NCBI RefSeq assembly: GCF_008189285.1
Contig: NZ_CP043315.1
Span: 240,001-272,000, forward strand
DNA length: 32,000 nt
From: Candidatus Saccharimonadota bacterium
GTDB taxonomy: Bacteria > Pseudomonadota > Alphaproteobacteria > CAJXXZ01 > 1604HC
Direction: 5' to 3'
Numbering within the stretch: the first letter of the stretch is position 1; each line of letters begins with the position of its first letter. Shown here in pieces: positions 803 to 26,108 of the stretch. A program made the translations under genes and the position numbers. Under the pieces are notes generated by a model. It saw nothing but the letters and a program-made list of their open reading frames with translations, made no database searches and was not told the origin of the DNA.

Positions 803-1990
803 GTGCAATCTATTGTTGCGACACCAGACCAAGCAATGCTTGATGAGATGAGAGCAGACATAGAAATATATAAAAAAGTTAGAAAAGAAAATGATGAATG
901 TGACAAAGCTATAGCATTGAATAGAAGGCATATTATGCCATTTATGTTTTATATAAGCAGAAAACAGGTTGAAGTAGAAACAAAAGATGAAAAAGGAGCT
1001 ATAACAAAAGCTGAAGAGCATATTATAAATGCAGATAATGCAAAAGATGTTATTTCTTTCTTAACAGGAGATGGCCTTTTCTATAAAATTGATCCAAGTA
1101 ATCCAAATTATGTAGAAAACGAAAATTATAAATTAAGCTATCCATTTGATGCATTGAAATATAATCTTGCACACTATATTGATGTTAATGAATTTAGATT
1201 TGAAAACATACAAAAATGTGCAAGCAGTGGAATATTACATATTAGAGGAAAGGAGCAATACTTTTCTATGAAGTATGTCTCTATGCATGATGACGAAGTG
1301 AAAAAGAGCTTAGGGTGCTTGCAACTTCTTACTCTAAGTGGTTATATAGTTCCTTCACTTGAAAAAGGAGTATTTGAAGGATTGGATAGCTTAAATACTC
1401 TTGGGTTATCATGCAGAAGCCTGCGTTCAATTGATCTTGGAGCATTTAATGGACTAAATAATTTGAAAGAGCTTCACATGTCACGCACCTCATTATCAAG
1501 TTCATTGAAACCAGGATTATTTGCAGGATTAAGCAATTTGATAAAGCTGAATCTATCGCATAATAAATTCACTTCACTTAAACCAGGATTATTTGAAGGA
1601 TTGAGTAGTGTGATAAAACTTAATCTATCAGACAATCAAATCACTGAAATTGAACAAGGGGTATTTGAAGGATTGAGTAGTGTGACAAAACTTAATCTAT
1701 CAGGCTGTAAACTTACTTCACTTGAACCAGGAGCATTTGCAGGATTGAGTAGTGTGACAGACCTTGATCTATCAGACAATCAAATCACTGAAATTGAAAA
1801 AGGAGTATTTGAAGGATTGAGCAGTTTGAAAAGCCTTGCTCTATATGAAAATCAAATCACTGAAATTAAACCAGGAGCATTTGAAGAATTAAGTAGCTTG
1901 ACAGAGCTTAATCTATCACGCAATAAAATCAATTTTTCACCTTTAGAAGCTCTAAGAGAAAGATATCAAAATATAAAAATTGTAAGTTAG
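803..1990 (+). CDS. LRR-family paralog A (head domain, about 8 LRR units, cap); N-terminal signal peptide disrupted by a frameshift
   Basis: 395-aa ORF (GTG at 803) with the family head motifs (DIEIYKKVRKEN, FYKIDPSNPNYVENENYKLSYPFDALKY, YFSMKYVSMHDD) and 24-aa LxxLxLxxNxIxxIxxGxFxGL units. The family-type ATG (MNTNKLLLS) with its TGCTATAAT box is at 772 in a different frame, which stops at about 841-843. Confidence 0.8.
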   Translation: MQSIVATPDQAMLDEMRADIEIYKKVRKENDECDKAIALNRRHIMPFMFYISRKQVEVETKDEKGAITKAEEHIINADNAKDVISFLTGDGLFYKIDPSNPNYVENENYKLSYPFDALKYNLAHYIDVNEFRFENIQKCASSGILHIRGKEQYFSMKYVSMHDDEVKKSLGCLQLLTLSGYIVPSLEKGVFEGLDSLNTLGLSCRSLRSIDLGAFNGLNNLKELHMSRTSLSSSLKPGLFAGLSNLIKLNLSHNKFTSLKPGLFEGLSSVIKLNLSDNQITEIEQGVFEGLSSVTKLNLSGCKLTSLEPGAFAGLSSVTDLDLSDNQITEIEKGVFEGLSSLKSLALYENQITEIKPGAFEELSSLTELNLSRNKINFSPLEALRERYQNIKIVS

Positions 1991-5906: not shown

Positions 5907-6899
5907 TTATAAATCAATATTAATATTTGGATATACCTCTTTTAGCTTTACTAAATATTCCTTGGATTTGTAGTCTAATGGATTGTCATTTAAATTTATA
6001 TTTTTCATAATATGAAAATCAATTCCTTTAAATGTCTCTGAATTAATTGAAGTAATTTTATTTCTACATAAATCAAGTTTTATTAAATTTCTTAATCCTG
6101 CAAATACTCCTGAATTTATTGAAGTTATCATGTTATTATCCAATTGAATTTTTTTCAAACTATTCAATCCCTCAAATAATTTTGGCCTAAGTTCAACAAT
6201 CTGGCTATTTTGCATATAAAGCCTTGTTAGGCTATTTAACCCTTTAAACACTCCTTCTTCAAGATCAGTAAACTGACCATTTTGAAGATAAAGCCATTTT
6301 AAGTTATTTAGGCCATCAAATATCCCTGGCTCAATTTCAATCATTTTATTATTCTTTAAATTTAATTCTCTTAAATTATTTAATTGCATATTTGTATCAT
6401 CATCATGCAAGGAAATATAGCGCATATAAAAATACTCTTCTCCAGCTCTTGTTTTGCTACAGCAAACATTTTCAAACTTATCTGCATCTATATATCTTGC
6501 AAATTCATATTTGAATTTGTCAAAAGGATAATTTAATGCATAATTTTTTATTTTTTTATAATATGGATCTTTTGGATCAATCCTATAAACTTCACTTCTG
6601 TTTTTTGTTGTTAAGAAAGAAAGAATAACTTTTTTAATATCTTCTCCTATAGAGCTAATGCTATTGAATATTATTTTATTTATTTCTCTATCTCTTGTTA
6701 TGCGATCTCTTGTTATGCAATCCTGAAGTAGATTATTGTATTTTTTGTTTTTAGACATTTCCTCCATTTCTTCTTTATTTTCTTTTCTAACTTTGTTGTA
6801 AATTATAATATCCTGCCGCATATTATCAGTATATGCATCATATCCTGCTGCTATATATTTCATAAGAATAGATGTCAATAACAATTTATTTACATTCAT
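5907..6899 (-). CDS. LRR-family paralog B (most divergent; about 5 LRR units plus cap)
   Basis: 330-aa ORF. MNVNKLLLTSILM signal-like start; head motifs IIIYNKVRKEN, VYRIDPKDPYY, NYPFDKFKYEFARYID, YFYMRYISLHDD; 24-aa LRR units; cap NPLDYKSKEYL. TGATATAAT lies at 6905-6913, 5 nt upstream of the ATG. Confidence 0.85.
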   Translation of the reverse strand: MNVNKLLLTSILMKYIAAGYDAYTDNMRQDIIIYNKVRKENKEEMEEMSKNKKYNNLLQDCITRDRITRDREINKIIFNSISSIGEDIKKVILSFLTTKNRSEVYRIDPKDPYYKKIKNYALNYPFDKFKYEFARYIDADKFENVCCSKTRAGEEYFYMRYISLHDDDTNMQLNNLRELNLKNNKMIEIEPGIFDGLNNLKWLYLQNGQFTDLEEGVFKGLNSLTRLYMQNSQIVELRPKLFEGLNSLKKIQLDNNMITSINSGVFAGLRNLIKLDLCRNKITSINSETFKGIDFHIMKNINLNDNPLDYKSKEYLVKLKEVYPNINIDL

Positions 6900-8247: not shown

Positions 8248-9648
8248 ATGAATATAAACAAATTATTACTATCAACTATAATCATGCAATCTATGATTGC
8301 AGCACCAGATAAAGTAATGCTTGATGAAATGAGAGCAGATATAGAAGTATATCAAAAAGTTAGAGAAGAGAATGATAAGGATCGTGAAATTGTATCGGGA
8401 AATAGAGAGTTTGCTATTTCTTTTATGTTTGATCTAAAAGCGAAAAGCAAGGGTAAAGAAGCATCGTACTTAAAAGATAATATTAATAAAGACATTATGA
8501 ATATTATTGTCTCTTTCTTAATTGGAAACGGTTTTTTCTATAGAATTGATCCAAGCAATCCATATTATGTAGAAAATGAAGATTATAAATTAAGCTATCC
8601 ATTTGATTCATTGAAATACTGTCTTGCAAAATACATTGATGTTAATAATTTTGAATACGTAGATCATGATGGCAGATTTATGAGAAAAGAATACTTTGGC
8701 ATGAAGTATATTTCTATGCATGATGATAAAATAGAAAAAAGTTTGAATGGCTTGATAGAGCTTGATCTATCGCGTAATAAAATCACTTCAATTGAACCAG
8801 GAGCATTTGCAGGATTGAGTAGTTTAACAAGGCTTGATCTATCAGAAAATCAAATCACTTTAATTAAGCCAGGAATATTTGAGGGATTGAGTAGTTTGAC
8901 AGAGCTTGGCCTAGCACACAATCAAATCACTTCACTTGAACCAGGAATATTTGAAGGATTGAGTAGTTTGACAGAGCTTGGTCTAGTATGTCATCAAATC
9001 AAATCACTTGAATCAGGGGCATTTGTAGGATTAAGTAGTTTGACAGAGCTTAGTCTATCAGACAATCAAATCACTTCAATTACAAGAGCATTTGCAGGAT
9101 TGAGTAGTTTGACAAAGCTTAATCTATATAGAAATCAAATTGCTTCAATTGAACCAGGAGCATTTGAAGGATTGGGTAGTTTGACAACGCTTGATTTATC
9201 ATTGAATCAAATCACTTCAATTGAACCAAGAGTATTTGAAGGATTGAGTAGTTTGACAAAGCTTGATTTATCATTGAATCAAATAACTTCAATTGAACCA
9301 GGAGCATTTGCAGGATTGAGCAGCTTAACAGAGTTTTATCTATCGTATAATAAAATCACTTTACTTGAACAAGGAGCATTTGCAGGATTGAGTAGTTTGA
9401 CAAAGCTTAATCTATCAGGCAATCAAATCACTTCACTTGAAAAAGTAGCATTTGAAGGATTGAATAGCTTAACAGAGCTTGATCTATCAAAAAATCAAAT
9501 CATCTCACTTGAATCTGGAGCATTTGAAGGATTGAGTAGTTTAGAATGGATTGGCTTAAGTTGCAATCCTATAGATGATAAATCTAAGGATTTTTGTAAA
9601 TTTAAATTCAATTCCAAACAACTATTAAACAGGCATATAAATATATAA
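8248..9648 (+). CDS. LRR-family paralog C (11 LRR units plus cap; C-terminus runs into a tsaB relic)
   Basis: 466-aa ORF. MNINKLLLSTIIMQSMIAAPD signal-like start, full head, eleven units of consensus LTELxLxxNQITS(L/I)EPGAFAGLSS (one is a 23-residue variant ..ITSITRAFAGLSS), cap NPIDDKSKDF. Confidence 0.9.
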   Translation: MNINKLLLSTIIMQSMIAAPDKVMLDEMRADIEVYQKVREENDKDREIVSGNREFAISFMFDLKAKSKGKEASYLKDNINKDIMNIIVSFLIGNGFFYRIDPSNPYYVENEDYKLSYPFDSLKYCLAKYIDVNNFEYVDHDGRFMRKEYFGMKYISMHDDKIEKSLNGLIELDLSRNKITSIEPGAFAGLSSLTRLDLSENQITLIKPGIFEGLSSLTELGLAHNQITSLEPGIFEGLSSLTELGLVCHQIKSLESGAFVGLSSLTELSLSDNQITSITRAFAGLSSLTKLNLYRNQIASIEPGAFEGLGSLTTLDLSLNQITSIEPRVFEGLSSLTKLDLSLNQITSIEPGAFAGLSSLTEFYLSYNKITLLEQGAFAGLSSLTKLNLSGNQITSLEKVAFEGLNSLTELDLSKNQIISLESGAFEGLSSLEWIGLSCNPIDDKSKDFCKFKFNSKQLLNRHINI

Positions 9649-13222: not shown

Positions 13223-15127
13223 TTAAGATGAGATTGCAATATTTGAGAGCATCTTTTTTAGCTCTTCCAAACAATCCTTAGATTGTTCATCTAAAGCATT
13301 ATAGCTTAATTCAAGTATTTGTAAGCTGCTCAATCCTTCAAATGCTACTTTTTCAAGTGAAGTGATTTGATTTCCTAATAGATCAAGGTCTGTCACACTA
13401 CTCAATCCTGCAAATGCTCCTTGTTCAAGTAAAGTGATTTTATTATACGATAGATAAAGCTCTGTTAAGCTGCTCAATCCTGCAAATGCTCCTGGTTCAA
13501 TTGAAGTGATTTGATTCCATGATAGATCAAGCTTTTTCAAACTACTCAATCCTGCAAATACTCCCGGTTCAATTGAAGTGATTTGATTTTCTGATAGAAA
13601 AAGCTCTGTCAAACTACTCAATCCTGCAAATACTCCTGGTTTAACTGAAGTGATTTTATTGCTATATAGATTAAGCTCTGTAAAACTACTCAATCCTGCA
13701 AATACTCCTGGTTCAATTGAAGCAATTTGATTTTCTGATATATCAAGCTTTATCAAACTACTCAATCCTGCAAATGCTCCTGGTTTAATTTCAGCGATTT
13801 TATTTCCTAATAGATTAAGCTCTGTCAAACTACTTAATCCTGCAAATACTCCTGGTTCAAGTGAAGTGATTTGATTGCCTGATAGACCAAGCTCTGTCAA
13901 ACTACTTAATTCTGCAAATACTCCTGGTTCAAGTGAAGTGATTTGATTTCTATATAGACCAAGCTCTGTCAAACTACTCAATCCTGCAAATGCTCCTGGT
14001 TCAAGTGAAGTGATTTGATTGTCTGATAGATCAAGCTCTGTCAAACTACTCAATCCTGCAAATGCTCTTGTAATTGAAGTGATTTGATTGTCTGGTAGAC
14101 TAAGCTCTGTCAAACTACTCAATCCTTCAAATGCCCCTGGTTTAATTTCAGTGATTTTATTGCTTATCAGAAAAAGCTCTGTCAAACTACTCAATCCTTC
14201 AAATGCCTCTGGTTTAATTTCAGTGATTTTATTGCTTATCAGAAAAAGCTCTGTCAAACTACTCAATCCTGCAAATACTCCTTGTTCAAGTAAAGTGATT
14301 TGATTGGCTGATATATCAAGCTTTTTCAAACTATTCAATCCTTCAAAAGCTCCTGGCTTAATTGAAGTGATTTGATTCCATGATATATCAAGCTTTGTCA
14401 AACTACCCAATCCTGCAAATACTCCTGGTTCAAGTGAAGTGATTTGATTTCCTAATAGATTAAGCGTTGTCAAACTACTCAATCCTGCAAATGCCCCTGA
14501 TTCAAGTGAAGTGATTTTATTACACGATAGATCAAGTATTGCTAAGCCACTCAATCCTTCAAACATTCCTGGTTCAAGTGAAGTGATTGAACTGCGTGGA
14601 AGATAAAGCACTTCCAAACTATTCATGCTTCCTTTAGCTTCGTCATCATGCATAGAAATATACCTTATGCAAAAGTATGCTTTTTCTATAAATCTACCAT
14701 CATGATCTACGTATTCAAAATTATTAACATCAATGTATTTTGCAAGACAGTGTTTCAATGAACTTGATGAATCAAATTCATAATTCAAATTATACATGTT
14801 TTCAGAATAATACGGATTATCTGGATTAATTTTATAGAAATCTCCTTTTTTTACTAAGAAAGAGACAATAATATTCATAATGTCTTTATTAATATTATCT
14901 TTTAAGTACGATGCTTCTTTACCCTTGCTTTTCGCTTTTAGATCAAACATAAAAGAAATAGCAAACTCTCTATTTCCCGATACAATTTCACGATCCTTAT
15001 CATTCTCTTCTCTAACTTTTTGATATACTTCTATGTCTTCCTTCATCATAGCAATATCTTGATCACTTGGCGCTGCAACAATAGATTGCATGATTATAGT
15101 TGATAGCAATAATTTGTTTATATTCAT
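13223..15127 (-). CDS. LRR-family paralog D (18 LRR units plus cap; largest copy)
   Basis: 634-aa ORF. MNINKLLLSTIIMQSIVAAP, a head that is part-identical to C/F, eighteen 24-aa units (one is the 23-residue variant shared with C), cap NALDEQSKDCL. Confidence 0.9.
   Translation of the reverse strand: MNINKLLLSTIIMQSIVAAPSDQDIAMMKEDIEVYQKVREENDKDREIVSGNREFAISFMFDLKAKSKGKEASYLKDNINKDIMNIIVSFLVKKGDFYKINPDNPYYSENMYNLNYEFDSSSSLKHCLAKYIDVNNFEYVDHDGRFIEKAYFCIRYISMHDDEAKGSMNSLEVLYLPRSSITSLEPGMFEGLSGLAILDLSCNKITSLESGAFAGLSSLTTLNLLGNQITSLEPGVFAGLGSLTKLDISWNQITSIKPGAFEGLNSLKKLDISANQITLLEQGVFAGLSSLTELFLISNKITEIKPEAFEGLSSLTELFLISNKITEIKPGAFEGLSSLTELSLPDNQITSITRAFAGLSSLTELDLSDNQITSLEPGAFAGLSSLTELGLYRNQITSLEPGVFAELSSLTELGLSGNQITSLEPGVFAGLSSLTELNLLGNKIAEIKPGAFAGLSSLIKLDISENQIASIEPGVFAGLSSFTELNLYSNKITSVKPGVFAGLSSLTELFLSENQITSIEPGVFAGLSSLKKLDLSWNQITSIEPGAFAGLSSLTELYLSYNKITLLEQGAFAGLSSVTDLDLLGNQITSLEKVAFEGLSSLQILELSYNALDEQSKDCLEELKKMLSNIAISS
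14103..14246. repeat. 72-bp tandem duplication (2 copies, 1 mismatch) inside paralog D
   Basis: 14103-14174 and 14175-14246 differ only at gcccctgg versus gcctctgg. They encode LTELFLISNKITEIKP(E/G)AFEGLSS twice. Confidence 0.9.
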
Positions 15128-15462
15128 CTTGTATTATATTATAATTTTTTATTGCTTGCAAATAATATAAAGTATGTTGCAAGTTGATAAATTATGCATT
15201 AATTACTCTATTAAGAGAATTATTTTAAATTTTTGTTATGTTTATTTCTTTTTTCATGCAAATGCAACTGTGTATTTCTATTTAAACAAGAATCTCAAGT
15301 AATTTTATAATTATTTCTTATATTGCTTTAAATACTTTGGATTATATATTTGTTAAAATTTATAATCAATATGCGCATTTTAGGAGAAAATTGCCTATAT
15401 TTTTTTACGCCAAAAAACAAGTCTTTAGATTATTGTTATTTTTAGTTATGATGATTGGATAG

Positions 15463-18400
15463 ATGAACTATACTGTAAAAGATAGAAATAATAACAAAGT
15501 TACCGTTGAAGTGAGAAAGAAATTCTCAAAATCGGGAACGACGGACTCTAAGAAATCTGGAGGATTTAATTCTCATGCCCAAGATAGAAGTAGAGTTTTG
15601 GAAGAAAGCTTTAATAAAGTTAGAGAAAATAGCATAAATAGATTTAGCTCTCCGTTTAGCGCAAAGAAAGAGGTTAATGTTAACAATGATAGCAGAAGCC
15701 AATCTAGCAGCGAAAACAAGAGCCCTGTTAGAAAGAGTCCTGTTAATAACGAAAGCAAGAATTCTTCTACTAGTGAAAATAGAAATTACTCTAATCGCCA
15801 GAAAAGTTATGCTGGAATAGATAGAAGCAAAGCTTATTCTGCTATTGGTAGTGAAAATAGGAGCTATGTTCGTAATAATAACTATGCTGGCCCTGGAAAT
15901 AATAGAAGCTATACTGGTCCTGGTGAAAGAGGGTATGTTGGTAATCGAAATGATTCTAGTTCAAACAGGGTAGATAGAAATAAAAGCTATGTTGGAAATG
16001 ATAGGCCTCCAAGAAAAGTAAATTTTAATCAAGAAGCTATAGGAAAAGTCACTGAAATGAAAAGAGATTTATTGAAAGGAGCTATGGGCAGCAGCTTAAA
16101 TCCTTTGAATAAAATCTTGAATACAGGAGAGAAGAAAACAGAATTCAGAACTTATACTCCAAACAGATCTCAAGGATCATTTAACAGAAATAGACCTGAT
16201 TCTGGAGGCAGATTTGGTCCTGGAAATAACAGATTCAGCAGCGGAGGCGGAGGATTTGGCGGAAACAGATTTAACAACAATGGCGGCGGATTCGGTGGAA
16301 ATCGATTTAACAACAATGGCGGCGGAAATGGATTTGGTGGAAATCGATTCAATAATAGCGGCGGAGGCGGCGGATTTGGTGGAAATCGATTCAATAACAA
16401 TAGTGGAGGCGGATTTAATAGGCCTGGCAATTTCCATAGAAAAGATGATAGCAGGCCATCATTTAGACCTGGCTCTGAATCTAGATTAAATGCTTTCAAA
16501 TTATCAAAAGGAAGAGCATTTATACCATCTGATAAGAAGCCATTCCAGAAATCATTTTCTTCATTTGCTCCATCTTTTATGTCCAAGTCAAGCGAAGGAA
16601 GAAAGTTTGCTACTAAAAAGAAGTTTTTCAAGCAGGATGGCGATAAAAAGCAAAATAGATTTAGACAAGAAGAGGGTCCATCTGAAGAGAGATTTTCTCA
16701 TCAATTCCTTGGAAAGATTAATTCTGCTGAGGATATAGAAATTGATTCAAACATGTACTTTAACAAGAGATTTAGAAATTCACAAAGAGTTAAAGATGCT
16801 GTAGTAAGAAATGTAGAAATTCCTTTTGAAGGAATCGATCCTATGAATCTTGCTAATCAAATGGCGGTTAAGTTGAATGTTCTTCATGCAAAATTAGAAA
16901 GCCTTGATCTATCTAAATCTGATATTATAGAACCTGAAATGGCTTTGATTATTGTTGAAGAAATGGGTCATAAAGCTGAAGTTATGACCAATAAAGATAT
17001 GGAAATTATTCCAGATGTAGGGAATGAAGATGATTATGAGCCTAGATGTCCAATTGTTACAATAGTTGGTCACGTTGATCATGGAAAAACATCCTTGCTT
17101 GATGCGTTAAGAAAAACAAATATAGTTTCTGGGGAATCAGGCGGAATTACTCAAGCAATTGGTGCATCTCAAGTATTCTTAAATGAGAATAAATTTGTTA
17201 CTTTTGTTGACACTCCTGGACATGAAGCGTTCACCTCTATGAGAGTTAGAGGAGTTGAAATTACTGATATAGTTGTTTTGGTTATTGCTGCAGATGACGG
17301 AATTAAAGATCAAACAGTAGAAGCTATTCAGCATATACAGAATGCAAAGGTTCCATTTATTGTTTGTTACACAAAAATTGATAAGCCAGATTCTAATATT
17401 GATAATATAAGGCAAAAATTACTTATTCATAACATAGTTGTGGAGTCTATGAGTGGAGAAATTCTAGAAGTAGAAGTTTCTGCAATGAAAAACAAGAACT
17501 TGGACAAGCTTTTGGAGATGTTGTTATTGCAAGCAGAAATGTTAGAGTTAAGAGGTAATAATAAGTGCAAAGCAAGTGGTATTGTGATTGAATCTAGATT
17601 AGATAGGCATAAAGGTCCAGTTGCAACTGTTTTGATTAAAAATGGTAAGCTTGATTACGCTGATCACTTTATTGTTGGTGATACATATGGAAAAATTAGA
17701 AATATGACATTGCCAAATGATAAAAAAACAAAATCTGCAACTACCTCTATTCCTGTAGAAATTATGGGTTTGAATGATGTTCCAAGTCCAGGAGATTTGT
17801 TAATTGAAGTTGATAGCGAAAAAGAAGCTAGATCGATTTCAGAATATAGAGTAAATTTGAAGAAGAGAGTTGTTGTTAAAAAGAAGGAGGTCGATATCTT
17901 GGCATATTTCAATGAAGAAAAAGCGAAAAATATTAACTTAATTGTAAAAGCTGATGTTGCGGGGTCTTTGGAAGCAATTGTTGCTGCTGTATCAAAGATT
18001 GAGTACGAAAGCATTGATATTAATGTTGTAGGAAAAGGAAATGGAGCCTTAACAGATAGTGATGTATTATTAGCTAAAACAAGTGATTCTACTATTATAT
18101 GCTTTAAAGTTAATATTCCATCTTCAGTTGCTGGTTTGGCAAAAGAGCATAATATTAAAATCAAAAGATTTTCTGTTATATACGAGCTAATAGATTATGT
18201 TAAAAGTATGGCTGAAGGAATCCTCGCTCCAACAGAAGAAGAGAAAATTCTTGGAACTGCAGTTATTAAAGAAATTTTTGTTAAAAAGAAAATTGGAACT
18301 ATTGCAGGATGTGGAGTTGAAGAAGGTATTATTAAGGTCAAGACAAAGGGAAGAGTTATCAGGAATGGAAAAGAAATTTACATTGGAGATATATTGAGCT

Positions 18401-19633: not shown

Positions 19634-20971
19634 ATGAAATATAAACAAATAATTTTATCTATGATTTGCATGTTAAGCAGCGTAAATTCTGTTTTTGAAA
19701 AGCCAAAGCCATTTCAAAATACTGTAAAAGAATCTCAAGGAGATGGAAAAGATATAGCTGTCTTTTGCAATATGAATCTTATTCCAGATGATAAAGTTTT
19801 TATTGCAAAATTCATAAAAGCTTGGTCTGATAAATTGCATAATCTGAATGGAAGTATTGTTTTAAGAAATCTAAATAGCAATATAGATTTGCCTGATCTT
19901 GGCTGTGCTGAGTTGGTCATTTTTGATTATTTGCCAGAAAATAGTGGGGAAATGGGTTCATCTAATAATTTTTATAAGTATGTTGAGAATACATTGAGAG
20001 AACTTCAATACAAATCAGTTGTTTTTGCTAATAATATAGCTCCATTTGATATAGAATCTATGATTAACAGTGAATCTTTTAAATATTATAGGTTAGGATT
20101 CACCTTATCTCATGAATTTGATTGCATGGAATTTTGCTTATCTATGATAGATCTTACCAATAAATTTGATGATTTGAATGATACATATTTTAAAGCGATG
20201 CGCTATAATGAATCAATGCTCATTAAGTCCTTATTGAAAAAAGGCGTTGCCATGATAAATGAAAAAAATCATAAGTATAAACGCGTATGCAAAAAAGAGG
20301 GTGTTTTCAAATGCACTGATACTGATGGTGAAGTTGTAAGAAAATGCATGATTTCCTCTGATGAGAATGAGAAATTAATTTATGCAAAAGAATTATTCAC
20401 AATTAATGGAAACAAATCTGTTATTAATGTGCTTGCTAAGAATGATTCATGGATCGAAGAAATGTGTAAGCAGGGCATGCTAGAAACTGTCATAGTTGAT
20501 GATGAATTGTCTCTAAAAGCAAAGTTTGAAAAAATTACACAACAGTATGAAAATATGTTTTTATGTTATTTAGAAAATATTTTATTAAAATTTACTTATG
20601 AGCAAAAAGCAGAAGAAACATCTAAAAAAATATTAAAAATGAAAGATGAAAATGGCTTGATTGATAAAAGAGAGCATAGCAAAATATTAGATGAAGATAT
20701 GCATGATATATCTGAAATTATGATTCCTTTTAAGAAAGAGCTTGCGCTTATATTTGATGAGAAATATGGAGATAAGGTTGATATTGATTCCTTTTCTTAT
20801 CATTCTGATGAAGTAAAAGGAAAATTTTTTGAAGAATTAAAACGTATTGTAGCTGATATTATTGAAAGCATGAAGAAGTTAGCCAACTTACAAAAAAATT
20901 TAATTTTAGTTTCTGTATCAGATATAGATAACAAAATTAGCTTTATTGATAAAGTAATTGCTGAGCTTTAA
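19634..20971 (+). CDS. orphan hypothetical protein with a predicted signal peptide; Cys-containing N-terminal half, K/E-rich C-terminal third
   Basis: 445-aa ORF. MKYKQIILSMICMLSSVNSVF looks like a Sec signal. I recognise no family. It is the only long ORF in a 3.1-kb stretch that is otherwise non-coding or decayed. Confidence 0.6.
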   Translation: MKYKQIILSMICMLSSVNSVFEKPKPFQNTVKESQGDGKDIAVFCNMNLIPDDKVFIAKFIKAWSDKLHNLNGSIVLRNLNSNIDLPDLGCAELVIFDYLPENSGEMGSSNNFYKYVENTLRELQYKSVVFANNIAPFDIESMINSESFKYYRLGFTLSHEFDCMEFCLSMIDLTNKFDDLNDTYFKAMRYNESMLIKSLLKKGVAMINEKNHKYKRVCKKEGVFKCTDTDGEVVRKCMISSDENEKLIYAKELFTINGNKSVINVLAKNDSWIEEMCKQGMLETVIVDDELSLKAKFEKITQQYENMFLCYLENILLKFTYEQKAEETSKKILKMKDENGLIDKREHSKILDEDMHDISEIMIPFKKELALIFDEKYGDKVDIDSFSYHSDEVKGKFFEELKRIVADIIESMKKLANLQKNLILVSVSDIDNKISFIDKVIAEL

Positions 20972-21728: not shown

Positions 21729-22770
21729 ATGAATATAAATAAAATATTACTATCAGCTATACTTATGCAATCTATGGTTGCAGCACCAGATGAAGTAATG
21801 ATTGATATGATGAAGGAAGACATAGAAGTATATCAAAAAGTTAGAGAAGAGAATGATGCAAATCATCAAGCTATTGCATTGAACAGAAAGAGTGTTCTTC
21901 CATTTATGTTTTGTGCAAGCAAAAAACAAGTTGCAATAGAAACAAAAGATGAAAGAGGGGTCATAACAAAAACTGAAGAGATTATTATATGCGAAGATAA
22001 TGCAAAAGATGCAATTTCTTTTTTGATAGGAAAAGATCTTTTCTATAGAATTGACCCAAGTGATCCAAATTATGTAGAAAACGAAGAATATAAGCTGAGC
22101 TATCCATTTGATGCATTGAAGTATAGTCTTGCAAGCTATATTGATGTTAATAATTTTGAATACGTATATCATAATGGCAGATCTATGAAAAAAGAATACT
22201 TTGGCATGAAGTATATCTCTATGCATGATGATGAAACAAAAGAAAGCATGAAAGGTTTGGAAAAACTTGATTTGCGTAATGCGTTCATCACCTCACTTAA
22301 ACCAGGAACATTTGTAGGATTAAGCTCTCTTGAATCAATTCTACTATATGGAAATCAAATCACTTCAATTGAACCAGGAGCATTTGTGGGGTTGGATAGT
22401 TTGAAACAAATTGACTTAAGGGCCAATAAAACCACCTCACTTAAACCAGGAACATTTGTAGGATTAAGCTCTCTTGAATCAATTCTACTATATGGAAATC
22501 AAATCACTTCAATTGAACCAGGAGTATTTGTGGGGTTGGATAGTTTGAAACAAATTGACTTAAGGGCCAATAAAACCACCTCACTTAAACCAGGAACATT
22601 TGTGGGATTAAGCTCTCTTGAATCAATTCTACTATAGTGGAAATCAAATCACTTCAATTGAACCAGGATCATTTGAAAAATTTAGCAATTTAACAAATCT
22701 TGATTTGGATTTCAATGCTCTAGATGATGAATCTAATAATTATTTAATGAAATCATTTACAAGAATATAA
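21729..22770 (+). pseudogene. LRR-family paralog E, interrupted by a 1-nt insertion (premature TAG at 22635-22637)
   Basis: A 302-aa ORF ends at ctactaTAGtggaaatc, where the two preceding repeat copies read ctactatatggaaatc. The +1 frame from 22639 continues GNQITSIEPGSFEKFSNLTNLDLDFNALDDESNNYLMKSFTRI-stop (22768-22770), which restores a normal unit plus the family cap. Confidence 0.8.
22289..22640. repeat. 144-bp tandem repeat (two LRR units per copy), about 2.4 copies, about 99% identical
   Basis: Copies start at 22289, 22433 and 22577 (cacctcacttaaaccagg..). I see one or two mismatches between copies (gagcattt versus gagtattt; tgtagga versus tgtggga). Confidence 0.85.
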
Positions 22771-22877
22771 AAATCTAAAAATTAGATTGTAAAATGTAAA
22801 TTCTAGTGTTTATTTTAATCAAATAAGTCGTAAATTTATTAATTTATAAAAAATTTCTTTCTATGCAAATAATTTAA

Positions 22878-24441: not shown

Positions 24442-26001
24442 TTAATTGCTTTCTTGATATAAAATTATAATACTTGTATCTTTGTCTTTTATATTTTTCA
24501 AACTTTGTTTAACTTTGTCATCTAAGTTGTTAGACATAATATTTAGCTCTTGCATATTTTTAAAATTTTTCATTTGAGATATTTTTTTTTCAATGCTTTG
24601 TATTTGATTTTCTTGCAAATAAAGCTTTATCAAACTACTTAATCCTGTAAATGATTTTAGTTTAATTGAAGTGATTTTATTTCCTGATAGATCAAGCTTT
24701 ATCAAACTACTCAATCCTGCAAATGCTCCTGGTTTAATTTCAGCGATTTTATTTCCTAATAGATTAAGCTCTGTCAAACTACTTAATCCTGCAAATACTC
24801 CCGGTTCAATTGAAGTGATTTGATTTTCTGGTAGAAAAAGCTCTGTCAAACTACTCAATCCTGCAAATACTCCCGGTTCAATTGAAGTGATTTGATTTTC
24901 TGGTAGAAAAAGCTCTGTCAAACTACTCAATCCTGCAAATGCTACTTTTTCAAGTGAAGTGATTTGATTCCATGATAGATCAAGCTTTGTCAAACTACTC
25001 AATCCTTCAAATACTCCTGGTTCAAGTGAAGCAATTTGATTGTCTGATAGATCAAGCTTTATCAAACTACTCAATCCTTCAAATGCCCCTGGTTCAAGTG
25101 AAGTGATTTTATTGCTTATCAGAAAAAGCTCTGTCAAACTACTCAATCCTTCAAATGCCCCTGGTTCAAGTGAAGTGATTTTATTTTTTGATAGATCAAG
25201 CGCTGTCAAACTTTTCAATTCTTCAAATGCTACTTTTGCGATCGAAATGATTTCATTGCTTTTAAGATTAAGCTCTTTCAACTTACCTAATCCTGCAAAT
25301 GCTCCTGATTCAAGTGAAGTGATTTGATTGCCTGATAGATCAAGCTTTGTCAAACTACTCAATCCTGCAAATGCCCCTGGTTTAATTTCAGTGATTTTAT
25401 TACACAATAGATAAAGCTTTGTCAAACTACTCAATCCTGCAAATACTCCTGGTTCAAGTGAAGTGATTTGATTGTCTGGTAGACTAAGCTCTGTCAAACT
25501 ACTCATACCTCTTTTCATTTTATCATCATGCATAGAAATATACTTCATGCCAAAGTATCCTTTTCTCATAGATATGCCATCATGATCTACGTATTCAAAA
25601 TTATTAACATCAATGTATTTTGCAAGATAGTATTTCAATGAATCAAATGGATAGCTTAATTTATAATCTTCATTTTCTACATAATATGGATTGCTTGGAT
25701 CAATTCTATAGAAAAAACCGTTTCCAATTAAGAAAGAAACAATAATATTCATAATGTCTTTATTGATATTATCTTTTAAGTACGATACTTCTTTACCTTT
25801 GCTTTTCGCTTTTAGATCAAACATAAAAGAAATAGCAAACTCTCTATTTCCCGATACAATTTCACGATCCTTATCATTCTCTTCTCTAACTTTTTGATAT
25901 ACTTCTATGTCTTCCTTCATCATATCAAGCATTACTTTATCTGGCGCTGCAACAATAGATTGCATGATTATAGTTGATAGCAATAATTTGTTTATATTCA
26001 T
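24442..26001 (-). CDS. LRR-family paralog F (13 LRR units plus cap)
   Basis: The ORF track starts at 26016 (MIECIM..). The family start MNINKLLLSTIIMQSIVAAPD is the ATG at 26001, preceded by the family box TGATAGAAT-gcata. Full head about 98% identical to C, thirteen units, cap NNLDDKVKQSL. Confidence 0.9.
   Translation of the reverse strand: MNINKLLLSTIIMQSIVAAPDKVMLDMMKEDIEVYQKVREENDKDREIVSGNREFAISFMFDLKAKSKGKEVSYLKDNINKDIMNIIVSFLIGNGFFYRIDPSNPYYVENEDYKLSYPFDSLKYYLAKYIDVNNFEYVDHDGISMRKGYFGMKYISMHDDKMKRGMSSLTELSLPDNQITSLEPGVFAGLSSLTKLYLLCNKITEIKPGAFAGLSSLTKLDLSGNQITSLESGAFAGLGKLKELNLKSNEIISIAKVAFEELKSLTALDLSKNKITSLEPGAFEGLSSLTELFLISNKITSLEPGAFEGLSSLIKLDLSDNQIASLEPGVFEGLSSLTKLDLSWNQITSLEKVAFAGLSSLTELFLPENQITSIEPGVFAGLSSLTELFLPENQITSIEPGVFAGLSSLTELNLLGNKIAEIKPGAFAGLSSLIKLDLSGNKITSIKLKSFTGLSSLIKLYLQENQIQSIEKKISQMKNFKNMQELNIMSNNLDDKVKQSLKNIKDKDTSIIILYQESN
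24767..24910. repeat. 72-bp tandem duplication (2 copies, 1 mismatch) inside paralog F
   Basis: 24767-24838 and 24839-24910 differ at one base (acttaatcc versus actcaatcc). They encode LTELFLPENQITSIEPGVFAGLSS twice. Confidence 0.9.
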
Positions 26002-26108
26002 TATGCATTCTATCATAACTTTATTAAGTTAGAAGAGAGATTAATTAATTGCGTTATCTGTCTAAATGCGTTTCAAATTGATTAAATTTACACTCCTTTA
26101 ATTATAAT

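Follow-up and report, generated by a model that had tools for sequence, protein, structure and literature searches.

The variable lymphocyte receptors (VLRs) of lamprey and hagfish generate diversity somatically, by assembling silent cassettes into an incomplete germ-line gene, and carry LRRNT and LRRCT caps and a stalk. In NLRs, an NB-ARC (or NACHT) domain lies N-terminal to the leucine-rich repeats (LRRs), and variation exists among alleles or among the paralogs of large clusters. The internalins of Listeria comprise an N-cap, 22-residue LRRs, an Ig-like inter-repeat domain, and an LPXTG or GW anchor. Among amoeba-associated bacteria, the Parachlamydiaceae have the expanded LRR families NEX1 and PEX1 (Domman et al. 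2014, PMC4209131), for which overall purifying selection was reported with a gene-wide dN/dS of 0.29-0.63, repeat positions lying outside that analysis (PMC4209131). In LRR proteins, residues of the xxLxLxx β-strand/β-turn segment make the concave face, which is the usual ligand-binding side (PMC3138743).

Here, we analysed an LRR gene, D, and its paralogs in Ca. Cytomitobacter indipagum, a 628-kb endosymbiont of the marine protist Diplonema (a diplonemid). In the window, i.e., the whole 32-kb stretch of DNA under study, we found six LRR paralogs (A to F) that have an orphan N-terminal domain in common and occupy ~8.1 kb, about a quarter of the stretch. The copies are dispersed among aminoacyl-tRNA synthetase and translation-factor genes; the LepA encoded there is 80% identical to LepA of C. 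primus, and one 445-aa ORF of the window has no Pfam family. We conclude that D is probably a member of a young, lineage-restricted LRR family, the concave face of which is selected to differ between repeats and paralogs.

Gene D (13223..15127, minus strand), recognized from the ORF list and Pfam LRR_8, encodes a 634-aa LRR protein with, in order, a signal-peptide-like N-terminus, an orphan domain of ~150-170 aa, 18 LRR units, and a C-terminal cap. Its array (13253-14617, minus strand) consists of 18 regular 24-residue units and a cap unit. Based on unit extraction, TRF, and codon alignment, units 1-18 (13325..14617, minus strand) are 72 nt each except unit 8 (14045-14113), which has 69 nt and 23 aa, and their consensus is LTELDLSxNQITSLEPGAFAGLSS. 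TRF reported a 72-nt period with 17.5 copies and 83% matches at 13329-14588, and parallel arrays in other paralogs. Unit 19, a degenerate capping repeat, is followed by a C-terminal helical tail (LQILELSYNALDEQSKDCLEELKK...) (13253..13324, minus strand); its cap type, N-x-L/I-D-x-x-S-K, also ends paralogs B, C, E, and F, and residues 581-632 are modelled by AF2 as helices with low confidence. D belongs to the leucine-rich repeat superfamily, as the LRR_8 profile (PF13855) matched over multiple tandem repeats (E = 5.3e-196 in 14 stretches; for C, F, and B, 4.6e-92, 1.8e-189, and 3.8e-53, respectively). The array is of the "typical" LRR class, given its 72-nt period, 24-residue consensus, and AF2 strands at unit positions 3-5. 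The N-terminal region (aa 1-170; 14618..15127, minus strand), delimited by alignment, comprises the orphan domain and the start MNINKLLLSTIIMQSIVAAP, which, judged by eye, resembles a signal peptide, as its basic n-region leads into ~12 hydrophobic residues and its c-region consists of small residues; AF2 predicts a helix at residues 3-17.

Among the other paralogs, A (803..1990, plus strand; 395 aa, GTG start, ~9 units) is identical to the NCBI protein P0079 of Ca. Cytomitobacter indipagum, and its conserved upstream ATG is out of frame, indicating that the signal-like segment was lost. B (5907..6899, minus strand; 330 aa, 5 units) is the most divergent member. C (8248..9648, plus strand; 466 aa) has 11 regular units and a cap, with units at 8752-9612. 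E (21729..22773, plus strand) has 5 units before a frameshift caused by a 1-nt insertion at ~22637 (TAT GGA -> TAG TGG A); its last repeats and cap are still encoded downstream in the shifted frame, and it contains a 144-nt two-unit super-repeat with 97% identity. F (24442..26016, minus strand) encodes 524 aa if read from its first ATG (the start that is conserved in the family is at 26001) and has 12 regular units, a degenerate unit, and a cap, with units at 24562-25497. Unit number ranges from 5 in B to 18 in D, as the initial annotation of this DNA had stated. ORFs are complete in four of the six copies and frameshifted in the other two. We regard the family as one of birth and death, in which damage has already reached two of its six members.

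A promoter-like TTGCAA-17-TATAAT sequence lies upstream of D (15128..15161, minus strand), its −10 box ending 5 nt before the ATG, and each of the six paralogs has the conserved motif (TG)ATATAAT-ACAnn-ATGAAT upstream, with no Shine-Dalgarno sequence. Transcripts are accordingly predicted to be leaderless. In a consensus scan, promoter sites were no commoner than expected by chance in the AT-rich DNA of the window; it is only the conservation of the motif that suggests a promoter function.

Variability along the unit is unevenly distributed. In D, entropy is highest at positions 8, 5, 7, and 3 (3.02, 2.33, 1.99, and 1.88 bits, respectively) and at most 1.4 bits elsewhere; pooled over the 41 units of C, D, and F, positions 8, 5, 7, and 3 have 3.35, 2.30, 2.17, and 1.87 bits, and the others at most 1.7. 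The core observation of the initial annotation, a near-uniform scaffold with variable x positions, is thereby confirmed in D and in the pooled units, and it listed the residues at positions 5, 7, and 8 correctly. Its statement that variation is confined to these positions is only partly right: all three are among the top four, but position 3 (E/K/T/V/I/D/R/A), which is as variable as position 7, was missed, and scaffold positions 10 (Q/K), 14 (L/I), 15 (E/K), 18 (A/V), and 20 (A/E) each toggle between two residues. xxLxLxx has five x positions, and the four positions of highest variability all fall on these (probability for a random pick of 4 from 24, 5/10626).

The AF2 model of the LRR region of D has a pLDDT > 90, and DSSP assigns a strand to positions 3-5 of each unit. 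Taking solvent exposure from this DSSP register together with canonical LRR geometry, the strand at positions 3-5 argues that positions 3, 5, 7, and 8 line the concave face of the predicted solenoid. The model places the variable positions in the β-strand/β-turn segment rather than away from the concave face, in agreement with the initial annotation. Using Foldseek, the best fold matches were the solenoids of InlA, LGR4, and LRIG1 (TM up to 0.78 on the target for LRIG1/LGR4), with InlA among the top matches only because both proteins are LRR solenoids, and the best PDB sequence matches were IGFALS (E = 8e-88) and LRRC15. The 41 units carry 32 distinct concave signatures, and unit pairs that differ at 1/60 scaffold nucleotides have a mean of 2.8 differences at the 12 concave-codon nucleotides.

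In a maximum likelihood codon model of the 41 units of C, D, and F from this one genome, fitted on a single NJ tree from 72 nt, ω was 0.19 for the core, 0.89 for the remaining scaffold, and 3.96 for positions 3, 5, 7, and 8 (LRT 42.9, P = 6e-11). Gene by gene, the concave ω was 4.6 in D, 3.6 in C, and 4.3 in F (all P < 2e-4); column by column, it was 13 at position 8, 4.0 at position 3, 3.0 at position 7, and 1.9 at position 5. These estimates are to be read with recombination between units in mind, which is evident, violates the codon model, and can inflate ω. Per-site dN/dS in the codon-level alignment is, like entropy, clearly higher at the variable positions than in the scaffold. Moreover, unambiguous single-step changes in the concave codons comprise 42 nonsynonymous and 4 synonymous ones, in addition to 29 multi-step differences. 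The hydrophobic core is under purifying selection, while non-core scaffold sites drift almost neutrally. Altogether, these data support diversifying selection among repeats at positions 3, 5, 7, and 8, with the caveat that ω is 2.0 and borderline relative to ω = 1 (LRT 3.78, P = 0.052) if the concave class has its own overall rate; because the four concave codons hold too few silent sites, rate and selection are not cleanly separable. Local hypermutation was considered and ruled out by the unambiguous single-step silent counts, which amount to 1.8 synonymous changes per site in concave codons versus 2.16 pooled; the Nei-Gojobori pS of 0.41 inside the variable codons is a path-averaging artefact of multi-hit codons. 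Pure synonymous diversity is ~0 at codons 3, 4, and 5, which likewise argues against a local mutation hot spot.

The scaffold is near-identical even at silent sites because the arrays grew recently by duplication and by exchange of units and tracts. Scaffold pS between units is 0.14-0.15, similar to dS among the N-terminal domains of C, D, and F (0.09-0.24). Unit D12 equals F11 at the DNA level, D8/C5, D15/F9, and D17/C9 differ by 1 nt, and the order of units in D is scrambled relative to F. An identical 180-nt tract is common to the N-terminal domains of C and D, and the longest identical inter-paralog tract within the arrays has 111 nt. Codon bias was considered as the cause of scaffold uniformity and rejected, since the codon used depends on the position in the unit and is often a non-preferred one: all Thr codons are ACA at position 2 and ACT at position 12, the genome using the two about equally (45/44%), and Leu at position 4 is encoded by CTT throughout even though the preferred codon is TTA. 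We conclude that scaffold uniformity mainly reflects the youth of the units and their exchange and not strong constraint. The scaffold that had been described as nearly invariant is indeed near-uniform, but it is not a strongly conserved framework (pS ~0.15, non-core ω ~0.9).

The N-terminal 170 aa of D matched no Pfam family at E ≤ 0.1. A word-indexed search of 5.8 billion proteins and pattern scans of GTDB genomes and JGI metagenomes returned no relatives of this domain, and an exhaustive HMMER profile search of 1.84 billion representatives gave four matches only, i.e., paralogs E, B, and A and P0123, an unplaced 74-aa fragment. The AF2 model of the domain alone was unusable (pLDDT 36). C. 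primus and two related MAGs (OZ247501 and OZ247489) lack the LRR gene at their syntenic loci; because their LepA-PBP1 neighbourhoods contain none where paralog F lies in C. indipagum, the insertion of F is lineage-specific. We regard the D family as a set of lineage-restricted, recently expanded LRR proteins.

We propose that 72-nt units were duplicated in tandem and that units and tracts were exchanged between paralogs, so that the arrays would have grown recently. On this young scaffold, replacement substitutions would have accumulated at positions 3, 5, 7, and 8 at ~2-4 times the silent rate. The predicted ligand-binding concave face would then have been selected to diverge among repeats and among paralogs, a suggestion made because replacements there outpace silent changes while the core is purified and the rest is near-neutral. 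Such divergence would be ordinary adaptive change in the germ line, with a binding surface diversifying once repeats and genes had been duplicated. Most likely, the proteins would act as exported binding modules for proteins of the diplonemid host or another partner. George et al. noted that these genomes encode LRR proteins, many proteins predicted to be secreted, and reduced T2SS/T4P and T6SS systems (bioRxiv 10.1101/719211).

The foremost alternative, which we regard as unlikely yet worth serious weight, is that the x positions are merely the unconstrained surface of any LRR protein, that the scaffold is uniform through recent duplication and gene conversion, and that ω > 1 stems from recombination, tree error on 72-nt sequences, or a somewhat higher local substitution rate. 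The same entropy profile, with positions 3, 5, 7, and 8 ranking highest in the same regular 24-aa scaffold, occurs in a comparison set of unrelated bacterial and metagenomic LRR_8 proteins, e.g., in the Planctomycetia protein P0017 and also in P0003, P0002, P0008, and P0016; the view of the initial annotation that the pattern is unusual for a bacterium is not supported. The borderline result with a free local rate, the already near-neutral non-core scaffold, the recombination visible in mosaic units, and the older paralogs A, B, and E, in which the concave ω is 1.2 and not significant, are all consistent with this alternative as well. However, neutral sites cannot exceed the silent rate, whereas replacements at positions 3, 5, 7, and 8 are 2-4 times the silent changes per site in three genes independently and ~4 times commoner than at the interleaved near-neutral scaffold sites. 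In addition, the third positions of codons 3, 4, and 5, which lie within and between the variable codons, are almost invariant, so that neither a hot spot nor an older coalescence explains the excess, and conversion tracts cannot skip single codons. These points lead us to favor selection on the concave face.

A more elaborate version of selection would add combinatorial diversification, in which unit shuffling together with a host arms race or target-tracking makes the family a symbiont-side, germ-line counterpart of VLR and NLR repertoires; we consider this doubtful. Programmed diversification, in the form of cassette gene conversion (antigenic or phase variation), VLR-like assembly, or targets of a diversity-generating retroelement, could account for units and tracts being shared and reordered across paralogs, for the many concave signatures, and for six copies lying inside 32 kb. 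We nevertheless judge it very improbable: all six copies keep the promoter-like motif and a start codon, none being promoterless or resembling a silent cassette; identical inter-paralog tracts in the arrays are short; and PF01462 and PF01463, the LRRNT and LRRCT caps, matched none of D, C, F, and B. Neither a reverse transcriptase nor a template repeat was found in the window, all ORFs of at least 100 aa having been inspected, including the 445-aa one that matches no Pfam family, and the variation is not adenine-specific but includes consensus G and C, with codon 8 (GGC consensus) varying at all three positions and codon 5 at G. Finally, errors in unit order and number could be present since the arrays come from an assembly of Illumina reads (bioRxiv 10.1101/719211, methods) and repeats are on average 83% identical, but it is scarcely credible that chimeric or mis-ordered 72-nt units created spurious combinations, as the frame is open and the 72-nt register exact across the 11-18 units in all arrays, the ~10/72 nt that differ between units suffice to place 150-300 nt reads uniquely, and mis-assembly shuffles units and does not produce a codon-specific replacement excess.

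Gene families are usually lost from highly reduced endosymbiont genomes, whereas this one has kept and expanded an LRR family. Because an orphan-domain family fills such a share of the window and its predicted binding face shows signs of adaptation, its members are prime candidates for molecules mediating the Cytomitobacter-Diplonema association, and unit positions 3, 5, 7, and 8 offer specific targets for mutagenesis or interaction screens. On a broader level, the "invariant scaffold" of a repeat protein can mirror the youth of its repeats instead of constraint.

Compared with "typical" LRR_8 proteins (IGFALS, LRRC15, LRIG1, LGR4/5, TLR3, and those of Planctomycetia and metagenomes), the D family has the same repeat length and the consensus LxxLxLxxNxIxxIxxGxFxGLxx; it differs from them in having neither cysteine-rich LRRNT/LRRCT caps nor transmembrane or Ig domains and in an N-terminal domain unique to this genome. 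D is set apart from the internalins by its 24-residue unit, and no internalin-specific Pfam domain was reported for it. With lamprey and hagfish VLRs and plant NLRs, it shares variability on the concave β-strand and a dN/dS excess on a regular LRR scaffold. However, what was measured here is how repeats and the six paralogs of a single bacterial genome differ from one another, not how alleles or cells differ, and the N-terminal 170 aa gave no Pfam match to NB-ARC or NACHT at E ≤ 0.1. The resemblance to VLRs and NLRs that was noted initially therefore stands only as an analogy of pattern: LRRNT/LRRCT caps, NB-ARC, silent cassettes, and a reverse transcriptase were all missing from the window, and in the D family the orphan N-terminal domain and a short helical tail serve as caps. 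The GALA type III effectors of Ralstonia solanacearum are likewise a bacterial multi-paralog LRR family studied by codon-level repeat alignment, and their scaffold, too, is conserved with ω > 1 at some positions (Kajava, Anisimova and Peeters 2008, PMC2244805); they differ in having an F-box, CC-type LRRs, and selected positions on the convex/helical side (PMC2244805), as opposed to "typical" units and the concave side here. NEX1 and PEX1 of the Parachlamydiaceae are also lineage-specific in obligate intracellular protist symbionts, evolve by birth and death, and are presumed to function in host interaction. As in the D family, their N-terminal region is conserved and is followed by C-terminal LRRs whose number varies greatly, from 1 to 39 in those families (PMC4209131) and from 5 to 18 here. 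Their N-terminal domains are eukaryote-like F-box, BTB, or RING/U-box domains (PMC4209131), whereas the D family has an orphan domain with a signal-peptide-like start, in which Pfam matched no F-box, BTB, or RING, and the C. indipagum genome is approximately four times smaller than those of the Parachlamydiaceae. Altogether, the D family reveals no new diversification mechanism; rather, it is a clear case of a known type of protein, the expanded LRR host-interaction families of protist endosymbionts.

Among the six paralogous LRR genes in the window, young repeat arrays have exchanged units between paralogs; their core is under purifying selection, their convex and loop surface is near-neutral, and replacement is accelerated at the concave positions. 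The genes (paralog A, 803-1990, +; B, 5907-6899, -; C, 8248-9648, +; D, 13223-15127, -; E, 21729-22637, +; F, 24442-26016, -) are interspersed among the housekeeping genes of an AT-rich window (G+C ~30%) and total ~8.1 kb, or 25% of its 32 kb, in a genome of 628 kb. These housekeeping genes include those for LeuRS, AspRS, IF2, and PheT, recognised by inspecting the translations; LepA, assigned by homology; and, based on Pfam, class-I LysRS, a class A PBP, MurG, SspB, and ribulose-phosphate epimerase. IF2 carries, in its N-terminal region, tandem GGGFGGNRFNNN repeats with a 36/42-nt period (16246-16416, +), an RGG/FG-like low-complexity insertion. ORF A is matched exactly by the database protein P0079, which NCBI assigns to Candidatus Cytomitobacter indipagum under the name leucine-rich repeat domain-containing protein, and LepA of the window shares 80% identity with its counterpart in Ca. 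C. primus and 77% with the LepA proteins of two Rickettsiales MAGs (~620 kb). Ca. Cytomitobacter are Holosporaceae endosymbionts of Diplonema. The Cytomitobacter genome paper describes LRR proteins "throughout" the genomes and adjoining T6SS genes, along with numerous proteins predicted to be secreted and a reduced T2SS/T4P, and mentions the LRR proteins without further analysis (bioRxiv 10.1101/719211).

Tandem Repeats Finder detected 72-nt arrays in five of the six paralogs, the array of B scoring under its threshold. The D array (17.5 copies; 13329-14588; 83% matches), within which the interval singled out in the initial annotation falls, corresponds to 18 regular units of 24 residues (13325-14617) plus one degenerate cap unit (13253-13324), and D matches Pfam LRR_8 with E = 5e-196. 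One residue is missing in the eighth unit of D (D8) and likewise in its counterpart in C (C5), and, as initially noted, the paralogs differ in unit number, from 5 (B) to 18 (D). The initial annotation held that variation is confined to unit positions 5, 7, and 8 of a nearly invariant scaffold. These positions are indeed the most variable, with the residues it listed, both in D (entropies of 3.02, 2.33, and 1.99 bits at positions 8, 5, and 7) and over the 41 regular units of C, D, and F (3.35, 2.30, and 2.17 bits), which carry 32 distinct concave signatures. However, position 3 (1.88 and 1.87 bits, respectively) had been overlooked, and several scaffold positions alternate between two residues (Q/K, L/I, E/K, A/V, and A/E); the remaining positions have at most 1.4 bits in D and 1.7 bits in the pooled units.

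In an AlphaFold2 model of D based on 34 aligned sequences, the LRR region (~residues 170-560) has a pLDDT above 90, and DSSP assigns a strand to unit positions 3-5 in every repeat, with the register kept across the 23-residue unit. From this register, L4 and L6 would be core residues, with side chains 3, 5, and 7 directed at the concave surface and the ascending turn starting at position 8; the strand register thus places the variable positions on the concave face, as had been proposed. The five x residues of the xxLxLxx "beta-strand/beta-turn" segment are the usual ligand-binding face of LRR proteins (PMC3138743). Foldseek matched D to the solenoids of internalin A, LGR4/5, LRIG1, Roco-LRR, SHOC2, and TLR3, while the nearest solved proteins by sequence are IGFALS and LRRC15.

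The uniformity of the scaffold reaches silent sites. In the codon alignment, Thr is always ACA at position 2 and always ACT at position 12, Leu at position 4 is CTT in 40/40 units with Leu there, and Ser is nearly always TCA at position 13 and AGT/AGC at positions 23 and 24. The window's housekeeping genes use ACA and ACT at 45% and 44%, respectively, prefer TTA for Leu, and use ATC, the codon of position 11, for only 12% of Ile. Codon bias as the cause of the uniform scaffold is ruled out by this position-specific choice; rather, codons track repeat position and not the amino acid, which means that the units share a recent ancestor or have been homogenised. Scaffold synonymous diversity (pS = 0.14-0.15) is comparable to the dS of 0.09-0.24 among the N-terminal domains of C, D, and F. 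Exchange of units between paralogs is evident: D12 is identical to F11, the pairs D8/C5, D15/F9, and D17/C9 each differ by 1 nt, D16-D18 are colinear with C8-C10, and the F-like units of D occur in scrambled order. Moreover, despite an overall N-terminal dS of 0.24, C and D share an identical 180-nt tract in this domain (aa 32-92; 8341-8520, +, versus 14855-15034, -), which points to gene conversion between dispersed paralogs; RecA/RecFOR are reported to be retained in the genome (bioRxiv 10.1101/719211). In E, a 144-nt (two-unit) super-repeat with 97% identity (22289-22675, +) is a very recent tandem duplication of two units.

At positions 5, 7, and 8, pN is 0.51, versus the scaffold pS of 0.14-0.15 (Nei-Gojobori). 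Minimum-spanning-tree counts, which took only unambiguous single-nucleotide codon differences, gave 42 replacement and 4 silent changes at the concave codons (3, 5, 7, and 8), in addition to 29 multi-step differences. The resulting omega is 0.23 for the core, 1.2-1.5 for other positions, and at least 2.0 for the concave codons, or 3.4 with each multi-step difference taken as one replacement. A codon model (custom GY94-type, F3x4 frequencies, fixed NJ tree, predefined site classes) gave an omega of 0.19 for the core, 0.89 for the rest, and 3.96 for the concave class (versus 1: LRT 42.9, P = 6e-11). By column, omega is 13 at position 8, 4.0 at position 3, 3.0 at position 7, and 1.9 at position 5, and is not significantly >1 in any other column. 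Gene by gene, omega_concave is 4.6 in D (P = 5e-7), 3.6 in C (P = 1.5e-4), and 4.3 in F (P = 6e-5); in the older paralogs A, B, and E, it is 1.2 and not significant.

If the concave class is allowed its own overall rate, this rate is 2.1, omega is 2.0, and the test of omega = 1 becomes borderline (LRT 3.78, P = 0.052); the extra parameter is itself unsupported (2ΔlnL = 2.7). Silent changes per silent site amount to 1.8 in the concave codons versus 2.16 pooled; silent sites of the concave codons are no faster. A mutation hot spot or an older segment is countered by pure synonymous diversity (same-amino-acid pairs), which is 0.00, 0.00, and 0.016 at codons 3, 4, and 5 and ~0.3 at codons 6, 7, and 8, equal to scaffold codons 17, 22, and 1. 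Conversion tracts are unable to skip single codons. Unit pairs with 1/60 scaffold nucleotides different differ at 2.8/12 concave-codon nucleotides. Altogether, the codon-level, per-site dN/dS excess at the concave positions over the scaffold is real; an omega strictly >1 is well supported as long as the silent rate is shared, and marginal once the concave class is given a free rate, the most permissive alternative.

The N-terminal domain of the family (~170 aa) is an orphan, with no Pfam match, and no match in a word-indexed search of 5.8 billion proteins; neither GTDB genomes nor JGI metagenomes contain a locus for it, and its AlphaFold2 model was unusable. When 1.84 billion representatives were searched exhaustively with a profile, only four matches came up: E, B, A, and P0123, a 74-aa fragment with this domain (MTQCSMNISKLLLSDILMQSMVTAPDEVMIDMMKEDIEVYKKVREEND...). 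Because P0123 is not encoded in the window, the family has at least seven members, the seventh lying elsewhere and probably truncated. Another orphan is a 445-aa ORF (19634-20971, +) between the genes for IF2 and paralog E; it matches no Pfam family, opens with a signal-peptide-like segment (MKYKQIILSMICMLSSVNSV), and possibly encodes an exported protein. In the syntenic LepA-PBP1 neighbourhood, neither C. primus nor the two MAGs have the LRR gene that is found there in the window. Downstream of PBP1, C. primus (locus L001, 13903-15675) and the MAGs (loci L002 and L003) have other genes where the window has paralog F, LysRS, and E, among them an unrelated 590-aa ORF in C. primus and an EamA-like membrane protein; therefore, the LRR genes were inserted or lost at sites particular to a lineage, with conserved housekeeping genes around them.

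Two copies are damaged, which fits birth-and-death turnover. In A (760-810, +), the ATG conserved across the family (MNTNKLLLSI...) is retained but does not share the reading frame of the annotated ORF, which starts at GTG; the signal-peptide-like segment has therefore been lost through a frameshift. In E, a 1-nt insertion (TAT GGA to TAG TGG A; 22630-22773, +) gives a stop and a frameshift, and the shifted frame still encodes the last repeats and cap (GNQITSIEPGSFEKFSNLTNLDLDFNALDDESNNYLMKSFTRI, then a stop); unless the insertion is a sequencing error, E is a very recent pseudogene. All six paralogs are preceded by a conserved TTAT(G)ATATAAT-(A/G)CAnn-ATGAAT motif (15128-15161, -; upstream of 803, 6899, 8248, 21729, and 26001), i.e., an (extended) -10-like box ending 5 nt ahead of the start codon, and no Shine-Dalgarno sequence is present upstream of them, which suggests leaderless transcripts.

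We infer that unit and gene duplication was followed by selection for changes that distinguish each repeat's share of the binding groove, which would give each paralog a distinct binding surface. The LRR proteins are predicted to be exported, based on a Sec-type N-terminus judged by eye, possibly onward via the reduced T2SS described in the genome paper (bioRxiv 10.1101/719211), and may bind host or other partner proteins. There is no indication of programmed or somatic diversification. These data are chiefly of value for narrowing the candidate host-interaction proteins and residues of the Cytomitobacter-Diplonema symbiosis to a short list.

The observation of variability in the initial annotation is confirmed and its interpretation partly supported. 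The pattern is not unusual for a bacterium: the LRR-domain matches include bacterial and metagenomic proteins that share the 24-residue scaffold (LTxLxLxxNQITSLESGAFxGLGN in P0017 from Planctomycetia), and in five of these database proteins (P0017, P0003, P0002, P0008, and P0016), the most variable positions are likewise 3, 5, 7, and 8. The suggested likeness to VLRs and NLRs finds no defining feature in the family, which lacks LRRNT/LRRCT caps, silent cassettes, and NB-ARC; the features of DGR targets (RT, adenine-specific changes) are absent in the window. The family comes closest to the expanded LRR families of Parachlamydiaceae associated with protists, in which a conserved N-terminal region is combined with 1-39 LRRs; those families are under gene-wide purifying selection and, unlike the family described here, carry F-box, BTB, or RING domains (PMC4209131). 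The GALA effectors of Ralstonia were likewise analysed repeat by repeat; however, their selected sites are on the convex side (PMC2244805), while the fast-changing positions of the present family are concave.
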